Below are positions 7,778 to 16,129 of a DNA stretch of 16,129 bases, in pieces; the first letter of the stretch is position 1, and the number at the start of each line of letters is the position of its first letter. The notes under the pieces were generated by a model. That model did no database searches. It was not told the DNA's origin and worked only from the letters and a program-made list of their open reading frames with translations. Made by a program: the position numbers and the translations under genes. The DNA comes from a virus (taxonomy: Duplodnaviria > Heunggongvirae > Uroviricota > Caudoviricetes): the IMG/VR virus record IMGVR_UViG_2563367001_000002; one strand, 5' to 3'.

Positions 7778-8377
7778 ATGCGTAAATTATGTGCTGTTAT
7801 TCTGTCCGCAGTAGTCTGGCTGGTTGCCGCTGGTACGCCAGCGAGCGCAGCAGAGCATCAGTCCACACTAAGCGCCGGGTATCTTCAGACCCATACTGAT
7901 ATGCCAGGCAGTGATGACCTGAAGGGCATTAACGTGAAATACCGTTATGAATTTACGGACACGCTGGGGCTGGTGACGTCATTCAGTTATGCCAATGCCA
8001 AAGATGAGCAAAGAACGCATTACAGCGATACCCGCTGGCATGAAGATTCAGTGCGTAACCGCTGGTTCAGCATGATGGCGGGGCCATCTGTACGCGTGAA
8101 TGAATGGTTCAGTGCTTATGCGATGGCAGGTGTGGCTTACAGCCGTGTTTCGACGTTCTCCGGGGATTATCTCCGCGTAACTGACAACAAGGGGAAAACG
8201 CACGATGTGCTGACCGGAAGTGATGACGATCGCCACAGCAACACGTCTCTGGCGTGGGGAGCTGGCGTGCAGTTTAACCCGACCGAATCCGTGGCCATTG
8301 ATATTGCTTATGAAGGCTCCGGCAGTGGCGACTGGCGCACTGACGGTTTCATCGTGGGTGTCGGTTATAAGTTCTGA
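7778..8377 (+). CDS. lom: Lom outer membrane protein (Ail/Lom/PagC family beta-barrel), 199 aa
   Basis: Signal peptide (MRKLCAVILSAVVWLVAAGTPASA), alternating aromatic beta-strand pattern, C-terminal ...GVGYKF. Position right after J as in lambda. Own SD (GAGAGG) and flanking terminators. Confidence 0.9.
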   Translation: MRKLCAVILSAVVWLVAAGTPASAAEHQSTLSAGYLQTHTDMPGSDDLKGINVKYRYEFTDTLGLVTSFSYANAKDEQRTHYSDTRWHEDSVRNRWFSMMAGPSVRVNEWFSAYAMAGVAYSRVSTFSGDYLRVTDNKGKTHDVLTGSDDDRHSNTSLAWGAGVQFNPTESVAIDIAYEGSGSGDWRTDGFIVGVGYKF

Positions 8378-11411: not shown

Positions 11412-11541
11412 GCTGTATATGCAACGGAGGAAGAAACCCCGTTGCTGGAAGCCAGGAAAAAGTATCGGGTGTTGCTGAACCGTGTTGATACATCAACTGC
11501 ACCTGATATTGAGTGGCCTACGAACCCTGTCAGGGAGTAAT
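11412..11541 (+). pseudogene. tfa: Tail fibre assembly protein (Tfa) C-terminal remnant, about 42 codons (tfaD-like)
   Basis: Frame translates ...[39 protein letters not shown], matching the conserved Tfa C-terminal motif (...[26 protein letters not shown]). No N-terminal part; an in-frame stop lies immediately upstream (11409-11411). Confidence 0.7.
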
Positions 11542-11554
11542 CATTGGGATTATG

Positions 11555-11604
11555 CCGCAGCACGTCTTAAGCAAGAACGTGCTGCGGTTGGATGCTATTT
11601 TTTC
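11555..11604. terminator. Hairpin between the convergent Tfa remnant and methyltransferase gene (candidate bidirectional terminator)
   Basis: Perfect 11-bp stem CCGCAGCACGT / ACGTGCTGCGG (11555-11565 and 11577-11587) with an 11-nt loop; a T-run (TATTTTTT) lies 9 nt downstream on the + strand. No U-tract on the minus-strand side. Confidence 0.45.
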
Positions 11605-12263
11605 CCTGAAGCGGAAAACATTACTACAGTACCTTGAACCTTGGTTTTAACATTCTCGAAATGCTCTGAGAGTATATGTGTTAAGCCTTCTTCGGAATCT
11701 TTTGTGTTTGAAAAGATGCCTTTCTGATTGTAAATGCGCATCAGTTTTTGACCGAAGCTATTGTGCACAACGCCGTCACCAAGAATTGTGGCTCCGTATA
11801 GAGTTCCATCGTCAGTTAAGGCCTGCGCCGCATTGCGTATTACACAGCTTTTTGTAGATATATTTCCAGGCAGGCAGTGAAGAAGGTAAAACATGGAAAT
11901 GGAATCAAATTGACCATGTAACGCCGCGGGATAAGGATCAAAAACATCATGGCTAATTTTATGTTTAATTTTTGATTCCCCAGCCCTTGTAGATGCCGCG
12001 TTCAGGCTAGCTTCGTTCAAATCCATTAAAGATATCAGACTACTCTCAGGTACGTGAGTAAGGTAAAACCCAGTTCCAACACCAATATCCAGATGGTTGT
12101 TACCTAAATGTTCCAGAAAGTGTGGAAGAAGGTGTTCCTTTGTAGGACATCCCCATGCAAGCCGATTTGATACTCCCAAAACCCACCAGTCATAAAGCTT
12201 TAGGGTAAGTGGTGTGTAAATTTTAGCCCCATCATCTGTGTTTTTTTTCATTAATTTCACCAT
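11595..12263 (-). CDS. ybcY: Class I SAM-dependent methyltransferase (ybcY-like), 222 aa
   Basis: Motif I LDIGVGTG (GxGxG), acidic residue in LMDLNE about 20 aa later, motif II-like FDSISMFYLLHCLP. Sits between two Tfa remnants exactly like ybcY in the K-12 DLP12 tfaD-ybcY-tfaX arrangement; the symbol is assigned from that context. A second in-frame ATG at codon 5 (CDS 11595..12251) has a better SD (GGTGA). Low GC. Confidence 0.7.
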   Translation of the reverse strand: MVKLMKKNTDDGAKIYTPLTLKLYDWWVLGVSNRLAWGCPTKEHLLPHFLEHLGNNHLDIGVGTGFYLTHVPESSLISLMDLNEASLNAASTRAGESKIKHKISHDVFDPYPAALHGQFDSISMFYLLHCLPGNISTKSCVIRNAAQALTDDGTLYGATILGDGVVHNSFGQKLMRIYNQKGIFSNTKDSEEGLTHILSEHFENVKTKVQGTVVMFSASGKK

Positions 12264-12319
12264 GTTATAGTTTTATTTGTGAATTAAATCAATTATGGCG
12301 ATGAATTACAAGGGGTTAA

Positions 12320-12618
12320 ATGCTGCCGCAGCATAGCGATATTGAAATAGCCTGGTATGCTTCGATACAGCAGGAGCCGAATGGCTGGAAGACCGTCACC
12401 ACACAGTTCTACATCCAGGAATTCAGTGAGTATATTGCGCCACTGCAGGATGCTGGGAAATCGCAACGGAGGAAGAAAGATCGTTGCTGGAGGCATGGAA
12501 TAAATATCGGGTATTGTTGAATCGTGTTGATACATCAGTAGCTCTGGGTATGAAGCTGTTTGTAACTCATGTTACAGTAACAACCATTACTATCTCGAAG
12601 GTGCAAAATGTATATTGA
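12320..12618 (+). pseudogene. tfa: Tail fibre assembly protein pseudogene (tfaX-like), frameshifted
   Basis: One frame gives ...[10 protein letters not shown] and, after a shift of frame near 12455, ...[30 protein letters not shown]... These are both parts of the conserved Tfa C-terminal domain, split across frames. The C-terminus diverges from the Tfa consensus after VDTS. Confidence 0.6.
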
Positions 12619-12746
12619 TTTGATATTTTATAAATTTACTTCGAATCTGGCACGTCAACTTTTGATTAAAGTAATATCAGTTTTCGGCGAAAAAAGGACC
12701 GTGTATATGAGACGATTTCATACAAGAATAACAAAAATATGAATAT

Positions 12747-12780
12747 GCTCCCAATGCAATATATGTTTTGCATTGGGAGC
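12747..12780 (-). terminator. Rho-independent terminator for the minus-strand peptidase gene
   Basis: Perfect 12-bp stem GCTCCCAATGCA / TGCATTGGGAGC with a 10-nt loop, 22 nt downstream of the peptidase stop. On the minus-strand transcript it is followed by AUAUUCAUAUUUUUGUUAUU. Confidence 0.65.
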
Positions 12781-12801
12781 AAATAGCGGAATATTTTGAA
12801 A

Positions 12802-14286
12802 TTATTGTATTTCTGCTTCAGAATTTCCTGGGCAGTATATATTTTCTATTTTTTGTGGAGTGATCAGGTGATGTACAACTGCTTTATCTACACATAAATT
12901 AACTCCGGTGAGAGCTAATGTATGCCCATCACCATTTATTGTTAGTAACGGGCTGGAAAATTTCTCTGCCATCTTACGGGCATTAATCCAGGGCGTTGTT
13001 GGGTCGTATTTGTGTGCTACAAACAGTAAACCAGAGGGCAGAACAGTATTTTTCAGGCGAGTTTTGTTCAGGTCGCTATGTATTGGCCATAATTCACAAA
13101 AATCAGGTGAATCGGAACGTCCATTGTCAAAGTTAATGGCCGGGAAGGCATTCGCAAGAGCGTCTTTTCGGGATTTTCGCTCTTCTGGTGTTAATTGCTC
13201 ATCCCCCTGATCTACACAGAGGATTACCCCCGAAGCATCGCTTGACTCTTCTGAGGCTATCGGAGCACTGAGCGCAGTTTCAATTTCATTACTGACAATC
13301 CCCTGAGAGAACTGGCGTATGGCAGTTGCAAGGGTTGGCCATGATGAACGCCATAGCAGAAGGTCTGTTGTTAATGATATGAGTTCATCTGAAGATATAT
13401 TTTCTCCCTTACTGTCTAATAAAGGTTTGTGATGTAATTTTGATAATAGCTCATGGAACTGAGTTATTGCCTTATCTCTGTCTGAAGAAAGCGGGCAACT
13501 TTTTGTACGCGCACACCAGGATGCAAAGCGATCAAACGTTTCCTGATAACTCTGTGCCTGTTTGAGTTGCCATGTGAAGTTGTCCTCCAGGTCATCGATA
13601 TCGACGACTCCATCAAGAACGATAGATCTTACGTTGTAGGGAAAACGTTCTGCATATAAGGCTGCAATTTGAGTTCCATACGAATACGCCACGGCTGTCA
13701 GTTGTTTATCCCCCAAGGCTTGCCTAATACGATCAATATCGTATACAGCCTCGTTAGAGCCGATATGGCGAATGACTTCGGCTCCGGTATTATGGATACA
13801 GGCATTAATTTTATTTAATACTTGTTGCTTTTCGGTTATGTTTTCCTGAGTCTCTGTATCTGATTGCCGGCAGTTTATTGTCGGAGTGGACTGTCCGACG
13901 CCTCGAGGATCAAATCCAATAATATCCCATGACTCACGAAGATTTGTGACTGGCCAGTCAAAGTTAATATAAGGATTTATGCCTGGTAACCCGGGACCAC
14001 CACTTATTATCAGGATACTTCCTTTATGCTTGCTTTTTGCCGGCAATTTTGTCAACGCTAGTTTGACTTGTGATTTTTTTTCATAAGAAGCATCTCCGCC
14101 TGTGTCTGTATATTTTAATGGAACAGACAAATAACCACATAGTAAGTCAGGAGACGGTTTTTCCTCACCAAACCAGTGGTTGAATTGACTGGCCATACAG
14201 GATTGCCACTGTATCTGCTGGGCAGATACGGTTACTGGTAGAAGTAACGTTAAAACAACTTTGAAATGAGTAATTATTTTTCGCAT
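12802..14286 (-). CDS. Signal-peptide-bearing (exported) alpha/beta-hydrolase peptidase, S33 / TAP-like (tripeptidyl or prolyl aminopeptidase family), 494 aa
   Basis: N-terminal signal peptide (MRKIITHFKVVLTLLLPVTVSA|QQ). GGPG oxyanion motif (ILIISGGPGLPG), GFDPRGVGQS, nucleophile elbow AYSYGT (GxSYG-type), C-terminal Asp/His region (INGDGHTLAL). Low GC. Confidence 0.75.
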   Translation of the reverse strand: MRKIITHFKVVLTLLLPVTVSAQQIQWQSCMASQFNHWFGEEKPSPDLLCGYLSVPLKYTDTGGDASYEKKSQVKLALTKLPAKSKHKGSILIISGGPGLPGINPYINFDWPVTNLRESWDIIGFDPRGVGQSTPTINCRQSDTETQENITEKQQVLNKINACIHNTGAEVIRHIGSNEAVYDIDRIRQALGDKQLTAVAYSYGTQIAALYAERFPYNVRSIVLDGVVDIDDLEDNFTWQLKQAQSYQETFDRFASWCARTKSCPLSSDRDKAITQFHELLSKLHHKPLLDSKGENISSDELISLTTDLLLWRSSWPTLATAIRQFSQGIVSNEIETALSAPIASEESSDASGVILCVDQGDEQLTPEERKSRKDALANAFPAINFDNGRSDSPDFCELWPIHSDLNKTRLKNTVLPSGLLFVAHKYDPTTPWINARKMAEKFSSPLLTINGDGHTLALTGVNLCVDKAVVHHLITPQKIENIYCPGNSEAEIQ

Positions 14287-14424
14287 TGTGTCTCTGAATA
14301 TCGGAATAAAGATAAGATTTGAATATATTGAGGTCTTGTGTTGCGGTAAGAGATTACACGTTATGACATAGGTTAAATGCTTACAAAATTAGTGGATATT
14401 GTCTACTTGTAACTGTAAACAAAT

Positions 14425-14453
14425 TCCCCGGGGTTATACAATACCACCGGGGA
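14425..14453 (-). terminator. Candidate terminator for ompT
   Basis: TCCCCGG ... CCGGGGA inverted repeat (7-bp stem, 15-nt loop) about 20 nt downstream of the ompT stop, followed on the minus-strand transcript by AUUUGUUUAC. Confidence 0.5.
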
Positions 14454-14472
14454 GAAAATCTGGTTAACTTCG

Positions 14473-15426
14473 TTAAAAGGTGTACTTAAGACCAGCAGTA
14501 GTGATGAAGTTATAGTTTTCTATGCCTGCACCATTTTTGCTGTAGTCTGAAGTGTTATCATTGTGATCATAAAGTGAAGTATTACCTTTTTTATTCGTAA
14601 CCCGATTCCATGCGCCTTCAACATAAACTTTTGCGTTAGGTGTTACGTAATAACCTGCATTGACTGCAACAGAATAGTAATTTTGGTCTTTGACTTTACT
14701 GCGATAAGTGATTCTTTTTCCTGGGTCATAGTGCTCATCGTTATCAGATGCTTCCACCCAGCCGCTGTATTTAAATGTGCCACCTAGCTCAAAATCTTCA
14801 TAACGATAACTTCCAGTCAAGCCAATGTAGGGCATTTTAAAACGTTGTTTGTAGCCGATTGCTCTTTCTCCATTCGGGAAGGAGCCGATATCATCTCTGA
14901 ATCCCTCCTCAGAACTGTAGATATAGGAACCACCTCTGGCTGTAAAGCTATAACGGCTTTCCTGATATCCGGCCATGAGTCCCAGGCGGTAATTGGGTTC
15001 GTTGAGGAGCCAGCCTTTGATATTCAGATCAAATTCGTTGGCATAATTGAGTTGTGTATCAGGGTGCCTACTTTCATCTGTCCAGGTTCCGGGGTTACTG
15101 GAATCCATCCAGTCCTGATCGACCATATTGCCACCTCGGCTGCCGAGAGTAGTCCAGCCCGCAGCCCCAATAGATATCTGGGGCATCAAATCCCAATTAA
15201 TTGCACCTTTAATAATTGCAGCGTTATTGAATTTCCAGTCAAGTTGACTGACTTTTCGGCCTCCTTCTTCGGCTAGATAAACACGCTCTTTTGTTTTTCC
15301 GCTCAGAGTTCCAAGACTAATGTCCGCATTTATGTTGTCAGGAGTAAACGATAAAGTCTCGGTAGAAGCAAAAGAGCTGATCGCAATAGGGGTTGTCAGG
15401 ACTATTCCCAGAAGTTTCGCCCGCAT
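14473..15426 (-). CDS. ompT: Outer membrane protease OmpT (omptin, peptidase family A26), 317 aa
   Basis: 317-aa ORF with signal peptide MRAKLLGIVLTTPIAISSFA and C-terminal ...TTAGLKYTF. Essentially collinear with E. coli K-12 OmpT as I recall it. GGAG SD 8 nt upstream of the ATG. Confidence 0.93.
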   Translation of the reverse strand: MRAKLLGIVLTTPIAISSFASTETLSFTPDNINADISLGTLSGKTKERVYLAEEGGRKVSQLDWKFNNAAIIKGAINWDLMPQISIGAAGWTTLGSRGGNMVDQDWMDSSNPGTWTDESRHPDTQLNYANEFDLNIKGWLLNEPNYRLGLMAGYQESRYSFTARGGSYIYSSEEGFRDDIGSFPNGERAIGYKQRFKMPYIGLTGSYRYEDFELGGTFKYSGWVEASDNDEHYDPGKRITYRSKVKDQNYYSVAVNAGYYVTPNAKVYVEGAWNRVTNKKGNTSLYDHNDNTSDYSKNGAGIENYNFITTAGLKYTF

Positions 15427-15700
15427 AAAAGTTCTCCATTCAATCGTTTTAATGATTGAATATGTATTTTTTATATCTAACTTAATGAGTCAATTACATA
15501 TTGCTCCACTGTTTATATTTTGTTTAGTATTGAATGATTATCACAATGCGCTATCTGTTTTTGGTTTAATTATCTGTTATTGTTTTATGTTGCGGTTTTA
15601 CTGTGTGGTTTTTTATGCTTTTGTGGTGTTTTTATCTATTTAAGCGCCATGCCTTTAGAGGCATATAAGCGAAAATAGCATGAGGTTTATCCTCAATTGC
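15427..15700 (-). promoter_or_regulatory. AT-rich ompT upstream/promoter region
   Basis: Very AT-rich, T-tract-rich non-coding DNA directly upstream of ompT. Contains a 7-bp inverted repeat TTCAATC-N8-GATTGAA at 15437-15458. No promoter elements mapped with confidence. Confidence 0.4.
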
Positions 15701-15848
15701 TATGTTTTTTGGTACAAAAAAGAGGGACAAAACTGAGACACATAAGGCCTCACAATGGCTTGCAAGGCTTTACATGTTTTGAGGTAGTGGGACGTGTGAG
15801 CGCAGAGATGGCGCGGTAAGTTGTTGACTTAAAATGTCGTTCTAGGAA

Positions 15849-15893
15849 CTTCTAAGTCGTGGGCCGCAGGTTCGAATCCTGCAGGGCGCGCCA
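15849..15893 (+). tRNA. Partial tRNA-Arg (argU-type) 3' segment: anticodon loop through CCA, with no functional 5' half (attachment-site core)
   Basis: cttctaagtcgtgggccgcaggttcgaatcctgcagggcgcgcca matches the 3' ~45 nt of E. coli argU (UCU anticodon; T-arm GCAGG-TTCGAAT-CCTGC; acceptor 3' strand and CCA). The required acceptor 5' strand GCGCCCT is absent; upstream there is only a degenerate tRNA-like stretch starting at 15811 (gcgcggtaag...). Confidence 0.65.
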
Positions 15894-15900
15894 TTAAAAT

Positions 15901-16129
15901 TCAATCAGTTACGCCTTCTTTATTTCTTCTATAATTCCAGAGTGGGACATTATCACCAAAAATGTCGTCTATTTTCCTCGCGTGCTCAGTCAAATGATTA
16001 GGAGCAAGGTGAGCATATCTACGAACCATTTCTCTGGACTCCCATCCGCCCATTTCCTGAAGCACTGATAATGGGACGCCTGACTGAATCAGCCAGCTTG
16101 CCCAGGTGTGTCTGAGGTCATGGAAACGG
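15901..16129 (-). CDS. int: Tyrosine-type integrase (P4/DLP12-type), C-terminal 76 codons; 5' end outside window
   Basis: Minus-strand translation: [75 protein letters not shown]. Carries the HxLRHT box and the catalytic-Tyr region RRYAHL of tyrosine recombinases. The stop lies 7 bp from the tRNA fragment's CCA end. Not listed in the ORF track because it is truncated by the window edge. Confidence 0.85.

Follow-up and report, generated by a model that had tools for sequence, protein, structure and literature searches.

A gene for an uncharacterised Hip1/TAP-like hydrolase pairs with ompT on lambdoid phages and ColV-like plasmids and, as diverged copies, on F

Introduction

OmpT is a well-studied virulence factor that degrades antimicrobial peptides, and its presence in biotechnology strains is a standard concern. 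Its gene is a classical cargo gene of prophage DLP12, where E. coli K-12 has the order tfaX-appY-ompT. The window analysed here, a stretch of 16,129 nucleotides of Caudoviricetes DNA (IMG/VR record IMGVR_UViG_2563367001_000002), holds another gene in the place of appY. This raises the questions of what that gene encodes and whether it belongs with its neighbour in function as well as in position. A sequence-only reading of the window had seen a cargo module of two exported proteases that could act together, an S33 (TAP-like) alpha/beta-hydrolase and OmpT. Here, we report that an omptin gene and the hydrolase gene, in this order, form a unit of two that is mobile, a finding that is new, and that the hydrolase is an uncharacterised new member of an already known family. 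The best explanation, which we consider probable, is that the protein is an exported Hip1/TAP-like hydrolase acting as an accessory envelope peptidase and carried as phage or plasmid cargo beside ompT or ompP.

Results and Discussion

Location in the prophage

Both open reading frames lie on the minus strand, as had been read: the hydrolase gene at 12802-14286 (494 aa; ORF list, Pfam and alignments), directly downstream of ompT at 14473-15426 (317 aa; ORF list, Pfam and NCBIfam). The latter encodes an omptin outer-membrane protease with 99.4% amino-acid identity to OmpT of K-12, with all of the catalytic residues D83, D85, D210 and H212 (mature numbering) and with strong matches to the profiles PF01278 (E 2.8e-130) and NF008222 (708.3 bits, cut-off 537). 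Comparison with K-12 bore out both the layout stated for that strain and the placing of the hydrolase gene in the appY slot. The segment 12543-14422 (minus strand), comprising the hydrolase gene, its terminator and most of the spacer, is absent from K-12 and is replaced there by a 1.5-kb segment carrying appY. On one side, a ybcY-type class I SAM-dependent methyltransferase gene (11595-12263, minus strand) is intact where K-12 has a pseudogene, and Tfa remnants follow up to about position 12542. On the other side, 15849-16129 (plus strand) holds the 3' 45 nt of the argU tRNA-Arg gene (the att core) and then, on the minus strand, the 3' part of a gene for an intD-like integrase; a second, resident prophage remnant, DLP12-like, has its left end here.

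The pair is indeed phage-borne, occurring in 11 sequenced phage records. In sequenced phages of 45-48 kb (e.g. 2G7b, ev243 and PhiR26_1) it lies between the tail-fibre genes and int; the order in 2G7b and PhiR26_1 is tail fibre, ybcY, Tfa remnant, hydrolase, ompT, followed in 2G7b by int. The annotation of prophage Sp8 of O157:H7 Sakai includes it as ECs1662/ECs1663 (ECs_1662/ECs_1663), and among the close hydrolase copies in IMG/VR, 19 of 21 have ompT directly upstream. The pair is thus shown to be accessory cargo, a moron, at the attR-proximal end of lambdoid prophages. It shares its position downstream of tail-fibre genes and next to att/int with the b-region morons lom and bor of lambdoid phages and with ompT/appY of DLP12 in K-12; lom is also present in this prophage region (7778-8377). 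Morons of the lom/bor type are self-contained, have their own terminator and are expressed in the lysogen. The ompT-hydrolase cargo differs from them in being a two-gene unit and in being found outside phages too, on F-like and ColV-like plasmids. Each of the two genes, having a terminator hairpin behind it, may be likened to a moron of its own, and expression of the hydrolase from the prophage would be a case of lysogenic conversion.

An intact gene of the Hip1/TAP-like family

The assignment of the hydrolase to the Hip1/tripeptidyl-aminopeptidase (TAP-like, S33) branch of the alpha/beta-hydrolase fold is firm and agrees with what had been proposed from the sequence. The protein scores above the cut-offs of both PF00561 Abhydrolase_1 (E 3.1e-33; 115.9 bits, cut-off 25.8) and PF08386 Abhydrolase_4/TAP-like (E 1.7e-14; 54.2 bits, cut-off 21; residues 386-479). 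Its closest solved relative is Hip1 of M. tuberculosis, with an alignment spanning residues 21-475 (E 3.5e-51). In this alignment the GYSYG, DPxTP and GxxHT motifs of Hip1, whose triad has been assigned to S228, D463 and H490 (PMC4022732), match up with those around a triad of Ser202 (in A-Y-S-Y-G), Asp428 (in YDPTTP) and His455 (in DGHT) in the hydrolase. D428 and H455 fall within the TAP-like C-terminal match. In a set of 84 homologues with identities as low as 27%, D428 never varies, S202 and H455 are kept in at least 90%, and all ten cysteines of the hydrolase occupy conserved positions. Of the hallmarks named earlier, the GGPG motif (residues 96-99) and the C-terminal Asp and His were found as described; a strict G-x-S-x-G elbow was not, its place in the hydrolase being taken by A200-Y-S202-Y-G204. 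Most close proteobacterial homologues have this AYSYG elbow as well. AxSxG is known as an elbow variant that is tolerated, and the nucleophile is not lost. The gene at 12802-14286 (minus strand) is intact and evolving under purifying selection, with dN/dS of 0.12-0.14 (about 0.13) at dS values of 0.012, 0.17 and 1.1.

An AlphaFold model built on the 84-sequence alignment (pLDDT 91.4, pTM 0.91) has a Hip1-type fold, the top Foldseek matches being six Hip1 entries (E about 4e-33, TM 0.74-0.79). Structure prediction had been suggested as a check on the catalytic triad; the model confirms the fold, and D428, S202 and H455 are supported by the alignment. Hip1 (Rv2224c, CaeA; PDB 7sfm, 5ugq, 8e5w and 9md8) and the hydrolase share an alpha/beta core with a TAP-like C-terminal part. 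Their sequences align over the full length, with the triad and DPxTP matched and a Thr equivalent to T466 of Hip1, and the model superposes on the Hip1 structure at a TM of 0.79. Both are exported and cysteine-rich, with 10 Cys in the hydrolase and 11 in Hip1, and the ten conserved cysteines parallel the five disulfides predicted for Hip1 (PMC4022732). The two differ in that identity is only about 27%, the hydrolase comes from a Gram-negative host and is phage- or plasmid-borne, its elbow is AYSYG and not GYSYG, and it has a plain Sec signal where Hip1 shows mycobacterial envelope association.

What the enzyme cleaves is less readily read from its family. Hip1 is a cell-envelope serine protease with esterase activity too, which frees an N-terminal tripeptide and cleaves GroEL2 after Arg12; it is reported to be 30-38% identical to Tap/TPP A, SlpD and SlpE of Streptomyces lividans (PMC4022732). 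These MEROPS S33 enzymes, the namesakes of the 'TAP-like' domain PF08386, have the same pair of Pfam domains as the hydrolase and are exported or mycelium-associated serine peptidases; they are likened to it through the family, and tripeptidyl specificity is not inferable for the hydrolase from sequence. The earlier identification as an aminopeptidase or protease is not established: the prolyl-aminopeptidase equivalog failed widely, and the family includes the esterase-active Hip1 and, by structure matches, the non-peptidase enzymes TnmK1/K2. The equivalog, TIGR01249, gave 35.8 bits against a cut-off of 259.75, over residues 167-263 only, and prolyl aminopeptidase was rejected, the TM being 0.35. 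The proline iminopeptidases of this model (PDB 1qtr and 1azw) share the S33 clan, the alpha/beta fold and local similarity near the nucleophile with the hydrolase; unlike it they are cytoplasmic, of about 310 aa and devoid of the TAP-like C-terminal part (TM 0.33-0.35). The label 'lactone hydrolase' in phage record LR595866 was unsupported by every search made. Literature searches found no paper characterising the gene, in keeping with the earlier remark that it was not recognised as a described E. coli virulence factor.

Export

The hydrolase begins with a predicted Sec signal peptide (codons 1-22; 14221-14286, minus strand), MRKIITHFKVVLTLLLPVTVSA followed at the predicted cleavage site by QQ, which on inspection looks like a typical signal-peptidase-I signal and lacks a lipobox. 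Some annotations and the PHROG profile take M31 as the start. Translation truly starts at the upstream site, because W27 and C30, N-terminal to M31, are conserved in homologues. As judged from these features, the protein is firmly predicted to be exported. In the mechanism we propose, the Sec system would translocate the hydrolase, processing would follow Ala22, and the protein would fold in the periplasm with five disulfides; Ser202, Asp428 and His455 would then hydrolyse peptide bonds, and perhaps ester bonds as well, in peptides and proteins that belong to the envelope or come in from outside.

Transcription signals

The two genes had been read as separate transcription units with their own terminators. 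The terminators are there. A strong terminator-like hairpin with a 14-bp stem (12746-12781, minus strand; dG -24.4, z -6.2) lies 21 nt past the hydrolase stop codon, and a weaker, GC-rich one (14425-14453, minus strand; z -2.5), terminator-like with a weak U-tract, lies 3' of ompT and is conserved in K-12, ColV-like plasmids and F, where it is found 3' of ompP. Independence of the units is less well founded, as neither a sigma-70 promoter match above the scan threshold nor a PhoP box was found in the 186-bp spacer (14287-14472, minus strand). A weak sigma-70-like candidate can be made out there by eye (TTACCG at 14349-14344, 16 nt, TATATT at 14327-14322; 8/12 matches). Separate transcription of hydrolase and ompT is plausible, and read-through from the ompT promoter, which bears a PhoP box, may also occur. 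One site, at 15510-15526 (plus strand), was the only zero-mismatch match in the window, and Rfam gave no match anywhere in it. In microarrays of O157:H7 Sakai at entry into stationary phase, ECs1662 went down by log2 2.53 and ompT by log2 2.72, both within QT cluster 1 (PMC2241611); this is weak evidence of co-expression because that cluster is a very large growth-phase cluster.

Distribution and linkage of the pair

The hydrolase gene is present in 1254 of 5426 complete E. coli genomes (23%), which makes it an accessory and not a core gene. A single match covered at least 80% of the 3.2-kb two-gene region in 1221 genomes. About 97% of the hydrolase-carrying genomes have the gene adjoining ompT, and about 65% of ompT-positive genomes are without it. 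Lineages with the hydrolase include O157:H7, O55:H7, IAI39 and CE10, while K-12 and B2 strains have kept ompT and are without the hydrolase.

The full omptin-hydrolase pair is found on 156 plasmids and is common on F-like plasmids of cattle and environmental E. coli. ColV-like plasmids carry it beside iro genes as an IS-flanked module of about 2.8 kb, 91.8% identical to the prophage copy and corresponding to 12718-15544 (minus strand) of the window. On the F plasmid (NC_002483), ompP (32322-33269) is followed, after a spacer of 104 bp that is mostly terminator hairpin, by a paralogue of the hydrolase gene (33374-34861) that is 77% identical to the prophage hydrolase. This pairing, the strongest point of all, had been missed in the sequence-only reading. 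The pair thus travels on lambdoid phages, on ColV-like plasmids and, as diverged copies, on F. Since the pairing is also found on F, the arrangement with the hydrolase is probably the ancestral one, and that of K-12, with appY, the derived one.

The same adjacency could go back to a single ancient linkage event and have been passed on by descent. The hydrolase would then be independent of OmpT, a peptidase or esterase of general function, periplasmic or secreted, with a role in, for instance, nutrient scavenging, captured once before the split of ompT and ompP and retained since the unit is small. The homologues in other genera speak for such a history. None of 33 loci, which included Enterobacillus, Budvicia, Yersinia, Providencia, Serratia, Pseudomonas, Chromobacterium, Acinetobacter and Moraxella, had an omptin within 6 kb, and the neighbourhoods vary, with generic ABC transporters, a family-5 solute-binding protein in S. 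marcescens and a Tn7-like element in Salmonella. Clustering of the neighbours of 34 loci gave no signal of a neighbour conserved across genera and no recurrence of the SBP_bac_5 protein beside the S. marcescens copy; the neighbours that did recur, EF-G-like, AraC-type and generic ABC-transporter genes, represent Serratia synteny only. The individual hairpins of the two genes and the retention of ompT alone in K-12 and B2 strains point the same way. Mere descent is harder to reconcile with an adjacency that has persisted to dS values above 1 and on four or more kinds of replicon or site, with plasmid copies excised as exactly ompT plus hydrolase, and with the near-complete linkage in hydrolase-bearing genomes. 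We regard descent alone as a possible but rather doubtful account.

A possible role beside OmpT

Under the accessory envelope peptidase reading that we prefer, the likeliest role of the hydrolase would be to degrade further what OmpT or OmpP has first cut at the surface, candidate substrates being, e.g., fragments of cationic antimicrobial peptides or proteins. The substrate and the cooperation with OmpT are hypotheses. A functional coupling of the two is unproven because no omptin adjoins the homologues of other genera and K-12 has a working OmpT in the absence of the gene. The OmpT of that strain is the prototype omptin and has no hydrolase neighbour, and most ompT-positive genomes likewise lack the gene, so that OmpT does not need the hydrolase. 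A more elaborate scheme of two-step envelope proteolysis may be envisaged, in which OmpT or OmpP would cut cationic host peptides or proteins at the surface, leaving fragments for the TAP-like enzyme in the periplasm to trim to tripeptides that are harmless and can be imported; alternatively, that enzyme would process one particular envelope or host protein, as Hip1 does. With lambdoid phages and F-type plasmids as its vehicles, such a system would make carriers (O157:H7, ExPEC of phylogroups D/E/F and ColV-plasmid strains) more resistant to antimicrobial peptides, or better able to modulate immunity, than strains with ompT alone, such as K-12. In this full form the scheme is speculative, and we think it unlikely.

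The relationship to Hip1, a virulence protease of M. tuberculosis and the closest characterised relative, also suggests a virulence or immune-modulating factor that reaches the surface or the medium, cleaves specific bacterial or host proteins and dampens host responses in EHEC and ExPEC lysogens. Carriers are rich in pathotypes (O157:H7, O55:H7, IAI39, CE10 and the ColV-like plasmids with iro), and lom lies in the same prophage region. However, the low identity to Hip1, the abundance of the pair on F-like plasmids of cattle and environmental strains, and a Sec signal with no secretion system or surface anchor evident make such a role improbable.

A further reading starts from a full-length match of the hydrolase to PADLOC model PDLC01094 ('C3a206, TAP-like protein'; E 6.8e-56) and holds that the protein, alone or with OmpT, serves envelope defence or exclusion against other phages or conjugative elements. 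The position of the gene near the prophage att end and beside a plasmid replication region would fit, as such positions often hold accessory and exclusion genes. The PADLOC match is, however, as remote as that to Hip1 and therefore shows family membership and not orthology; the model is listed in the PADLOC library merely as a TAP-like protein, and a disulfide-rich exported hydrolase would be an unusual form for a defence protein. We give this reading very little credence. The neighbouring methyltransferase gave no significant PADLOC match.

In about one third of ompT-positive E. coli, O157:H7 included, and on the F plasmid, the omptin has as its companion an exported hydrolase of the Hip1 kind that is conserved but unstudied, and work based on K-12 or CFT073 has therefore seen only half of the unit. 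If the hydrolase is a periplasmic tripeptidyl- or endopeptidase, carriers have an extra proteolytic activity in their envelope, and this might help explain differences in peptide resistance between strains that have so far been ascribed to ompT promoter variants. If it is unlinked to OmpT, it is one more uncharacterised passenger gene of phages and plasmids. F' strains carry both ompP and the hydrolase gene, which could matter for the degradation of recombinant proteins in the periplasm.

Results

The two minus-strand open reading frames described in the sequence-only reading match the ORF list exactly: the hydrolase at 12802..14286 (494 aa) and its partner at 14473..15426 (317 aa), separated by a spacer of 186 bp. 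That the partner is ompT was borne out, as its product carries the Pfam Omptin domain (E 2.8e-130), scores 708 bits against NCBIfam NF008222 (cut-off 537), is 99.4% identical to K-12 OmpT and has all of the catalytic residues D83, D85, D210 and H212. Both Pfam domains for which a search had been proposed were found in the hydrolase above the curated cut-offs, Abhydrolase_1 at E 3.1e-33 and the TAP-like Abhydrolase_4 at E 1.7e-14. Among the S33 hallmarks first listed, the GGPG motif (residues 96-99) and the C-terminal Asp and His (Asp428 in YDPTTP, His455 in DGHT) are present, but the elbow is AxSxG instead of GxSYG, with the nucleophile Ser202 within A-Y-S-Y-G. In an alignment of 84 homologues D428 never varies, at least 90% keep S202 and H455, and the ten cysteines (30, 50, 139, 163, 258, 264, 357, 397, 465, 485) occupy positions with little or no variation. 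The N-terminal sequence, MRKIITHFKVVLTLLLPVTVSA/QQ, looks like a signal peptide of the signal-peptidase-I type without a lipobox, which fits the signal peptide originally claimed. Met31 serves as the start in the PHROG profile and in some phage annotations; since W27 and C30 upstream of it are conserved among homologues and the alignment to Hip1 starts at residue 21, the long reading frame with the signal peptide is the real one.

When solved structures were searched by sequence, the top match was Hip1 (Rv2224c/CaeA) of Mycobacterium tuberculosis (E 3.5e-51, hydrolase residues 21-475), with the nucleophile, DPxTP and HT motifs in register. Structure prediction with the 84 homologues aligned gave a pLDDT of 91.4 and a pTM of 0.91 (pLDDT 36 without the alignment), and in a Foldseek comparison of this model with the PDB the first six entries were Hip1 (E about 4e-33, TM 0.74-0.79), followed by TnmK1/K2. 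Of the original designation as a tripeptidyl/prolyl aminopeptidase, the TAP-like family stands and the prolyl aminopeptidase falls, with 35.8 bits against an equivalog cut-off of 259.75 and a structural TM of only 0.33-0.35. Hip1 is a cell-envelope serine protease (triad S228/D463/H490) with esterase and protease activities, which cuts GroEL2 after Thr3 (this frees a tripeptide) and also after Arg12; five disulfides are predicted among its 11 cysteines (PMC4022732). The hydrolase has the aligned motifs and, as modelled, the fold, with 10 cysteines to the 11 of Hip1, and its predicted family, fold, triad and export are well supported.

No paper characterising the gene was found among open-access PMC papers and bioRxiv preprints, in line with the initial impression that it is not a described E. 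coli virulence factor, and its family in PHROGs (phrog_20134) is listed without a function; the protein adds an uncharacterised member to an enzyme family already known. That it acts as a secreted virulence factor in the manner of Hip1 we consider unlikely. A full-length match to the PADLOC model PDLC01094 'TAP-like protein' (E 6.8e-56) raises an envelope-level defence or exclusion function, but this match is no closer than that to Hip1 and such a role seems highly improbable. On our best reading the gene codes for a serine hydrolase of the Hip1/TAP-like type that is exported and is most likely a peptidase of the periplasm; phages would carry the gene for lysogenic conversion and plasmids as an accessory gene.

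The hydrolase gene is accessory and not the widespread core gene considered as an alternative at the outset: 1254 of 5426 complete E. coli genomes, IAI39, CE10, O55:H7 and O157:H7 among them, contain it. Most of these copies are at least 99% identical to that of the window, and the sole annotation is 'alpha/beta hydrolase'. A 3.2-kb region over both genes was at least 80% covered in 1221 of the complete genomes and the ompT region was matched in 3543, so that about 97% of the genomes with the hydrolase have ompT beside it and about one third of the ompT-positive genomes hold the hydrolase. Nei-Gojobori dN/dS for the hydrolase was 0.12-0.14 at three depths (Sakai, dS 0.012; a ColV-like plasmid copy, dS 0.17; the F plasmid copy, dS 1.1) and 0.04-0.17 for the omptin; both genes are under purifying selection.

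Homology to K-12 covers 11421-12542 (ybcY, tfaX) and restarts directly past the ompT terminator hairpin, over 14423-15895. The segment between, 12543-14422, with the hydrolase, its terminator and the spacer, is swapped in K-12 for a 1.5-kb appY segment, and the hydrolase thus does lie in the slot of appY. The neighbouring ybcY-type class I SAM-dependent methyltransferase (11595-12263, minus strand; phrog_2132, unknown function) is intact with 222 aa, as in sequenced phages and Sakai (ECs_1656), and is a pseudogene in K-12. At the other end, 15849-16129 is 92.8% identical to the 3' end of K-12 argU and the start of the DLP12 intD region, an attL-type junction that follows ompT in only 79 of 5426 genomes. 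Strain AST216, 100% identical here, continues with a pseudogene for an integrase, a fragment of Tfa, another ybcY-type methyltransferase and another ompT, this one lacking hydrolase and envY, before ybcH-nfrA; these are two prophages in tandem at argU with two ompT copies, the hydrolase coming from the incoming phage only.

The description of the pair as phage cargo was confirmed in sequenced phage genomes and in an annotated prophage. The hydrolase occurs in 11 deposited phage records of 45-48 kb, which represent nine phages (Turner, 2G7b, ev243, PhiR26_1, PhiR29_1, PhiR29_2, PhiR30_1, PhiR49_1 and PhiR49_1_star), as 2G7b and ev243 were each deposited twice. The order in 2G7b is Lom, tail fibres, ybcY methyltransferase, Tfa remnants, hydrolase, ompT and int, and PhiR26_1 agrees as far as ompT. 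In Sakai, ECs_1662 ('hydrolase') adjoins ECs_1663 (ompT) within the lambda-like prophage Sp8, beside minCDE and hence at a chromosomal site other than that of DLP12. Among 21 close hydrolase copies in IMG/VR, 19 have ompT directly upstream; one of the others ends at the contig edge and one has an IS in the spacer (corresponding to 14367). Two IMG/VR contigs have discordant hydrolase/ompT identities to the window (L115, 96%/92%; L116, 95%/99%), which suggests recombination of module variants inside the spacer. A 4.3-kb contig labelled 'MAG: Bacillus sp.' (JBJEFM010000006.1) is practically identical to the E. coli module (proteins 100% identical for the hydrolase and 99.7% for OmpT) and is almost certainly a binning contaminant.

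ColV-like plasmids have the block 12718-15544 (91.8% identity) between IS elements, and iroBCDEN adjoins it. The F plasmid (NC_002483) carries ompP at 32322-33269 and, after a 104-bp gap, a hydrolase at 33374-34861 (77% amino-acid identity in global alignment; against the window, the DNA identities of the two genes are 79.6% and 73.6%). The complete ompP-hydrolase pair was found on 156 plasmids, of which most are conjugative and nearly all come from E. coli. Directly upstream of the F pair are two autotransporter genes of very large size (21541-31673), and O157:H7 has an autotransporter pseudogene (ypjA) just past the ompT module. Omptins are known to release surface-displayed passenger domains, so this neighbourhood could be meaningful or could be chance.

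A hairpin follows each gene, as the claim of separate terminators would have it: a strong one after the hydrolase (12781-12746, minus strand; 14-bp stem, z -6.2) and a weaker, GC-rich one with a poor U-tract after ompT (14453-14425, minus strand; z -2.5), the latter conserved in K-12, in ColV-like copies and after ompP in F. Separate transcription is less certain. A consensus scan of the coding strand of the spacer gave no sigma-70-like site; by eye, a candidate was seen at 14349-14322 (TTACCG-16-TATATT, 8/12 matches). As the 104-bp F spacer is mostly hairpin, transcription that starts at the omptin promoter may read through into the hydrolase. Upstream of ompT (15510-15526) there is a perfect PhoP box, TGTTTATATTTTGTTTA, the sole zero-mismatch match in the window; none with up to three mismatches was found in the spacer. 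In a Sakai growth-phase microarray, ECs1662 and ompT fell by log2 2.53 and 2.72 at the stationary transition and belonged to one large expression cluster (PMC2241611). The fall shows that the hydrolase gene is transcribed in exponentially growing lysogens; as evidence of co-regulation with ompT the microarray is weak.

Discussion

The omptin-hydrolase pairing is common to lineages that have diverged as far as ompT and ompP and, by parsimony, is most likely older than their split; the K-12 (appY) and B2/CFT073 (ompT adjoining ybcY) arrangements would then be derived losses. Three downstream contexts of ompT have been described (Desloges et al. 2019, PMC6854850), and in isolate 'cystitis 6' the text to Figure 3a has the putative cold-shock gene 'ymcE' lying '186 bp downstream of ompT'. 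This spacing is identical to that of the window, and this 'ymcE' is probably the hydrolase under an erroneous annotation. The unit, also in its F plasmid form, seems to have gone unremarked in the open-access PMC and bioRxiv texts searched; it does not amount to a new category of system, and the mechanism proposed for it is hypothetical.

Cooperation between the hydrolase and OmpT, in which the surface omptin would generate fragments that the hydrolase trims, is an attractive but unproven hypothesis. In its favour, the two genes stay adjacent in phages, on plasmids of two kinds and at different sites in the chromosome, the plasmid unit is bounded tightly around exactly this pair, and both products are envelope hydrolases (predicted for the hydrolase) under purifying selection. 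Against it, K-12 OmpT is fully functional without the hydrolase, which is absent from most ompT-positive genomes, and no omptin was found within 6 kb of homologues from other genera (0 of 33 loci). It is possible that the two genes are linked by descent only, and with evidence on both sides our explanation is kept limited to the predicted enzyme and its carriage. As a hypothesis, cooperation is clean and cheap to test, and it bears on a gene much studied in virulence and biotechnology.

The neighbourhoods of the homologues from other genera were heterogeneous and gave no informative pattern. A 53% identical homologue in Salmonella enterica adjoins a Tn7-like module (TniQ, TniB, Mu-type transposase, resolvase) and has a gene for a serralysin-type M10 protease a few kb away; it, too, is mobile.
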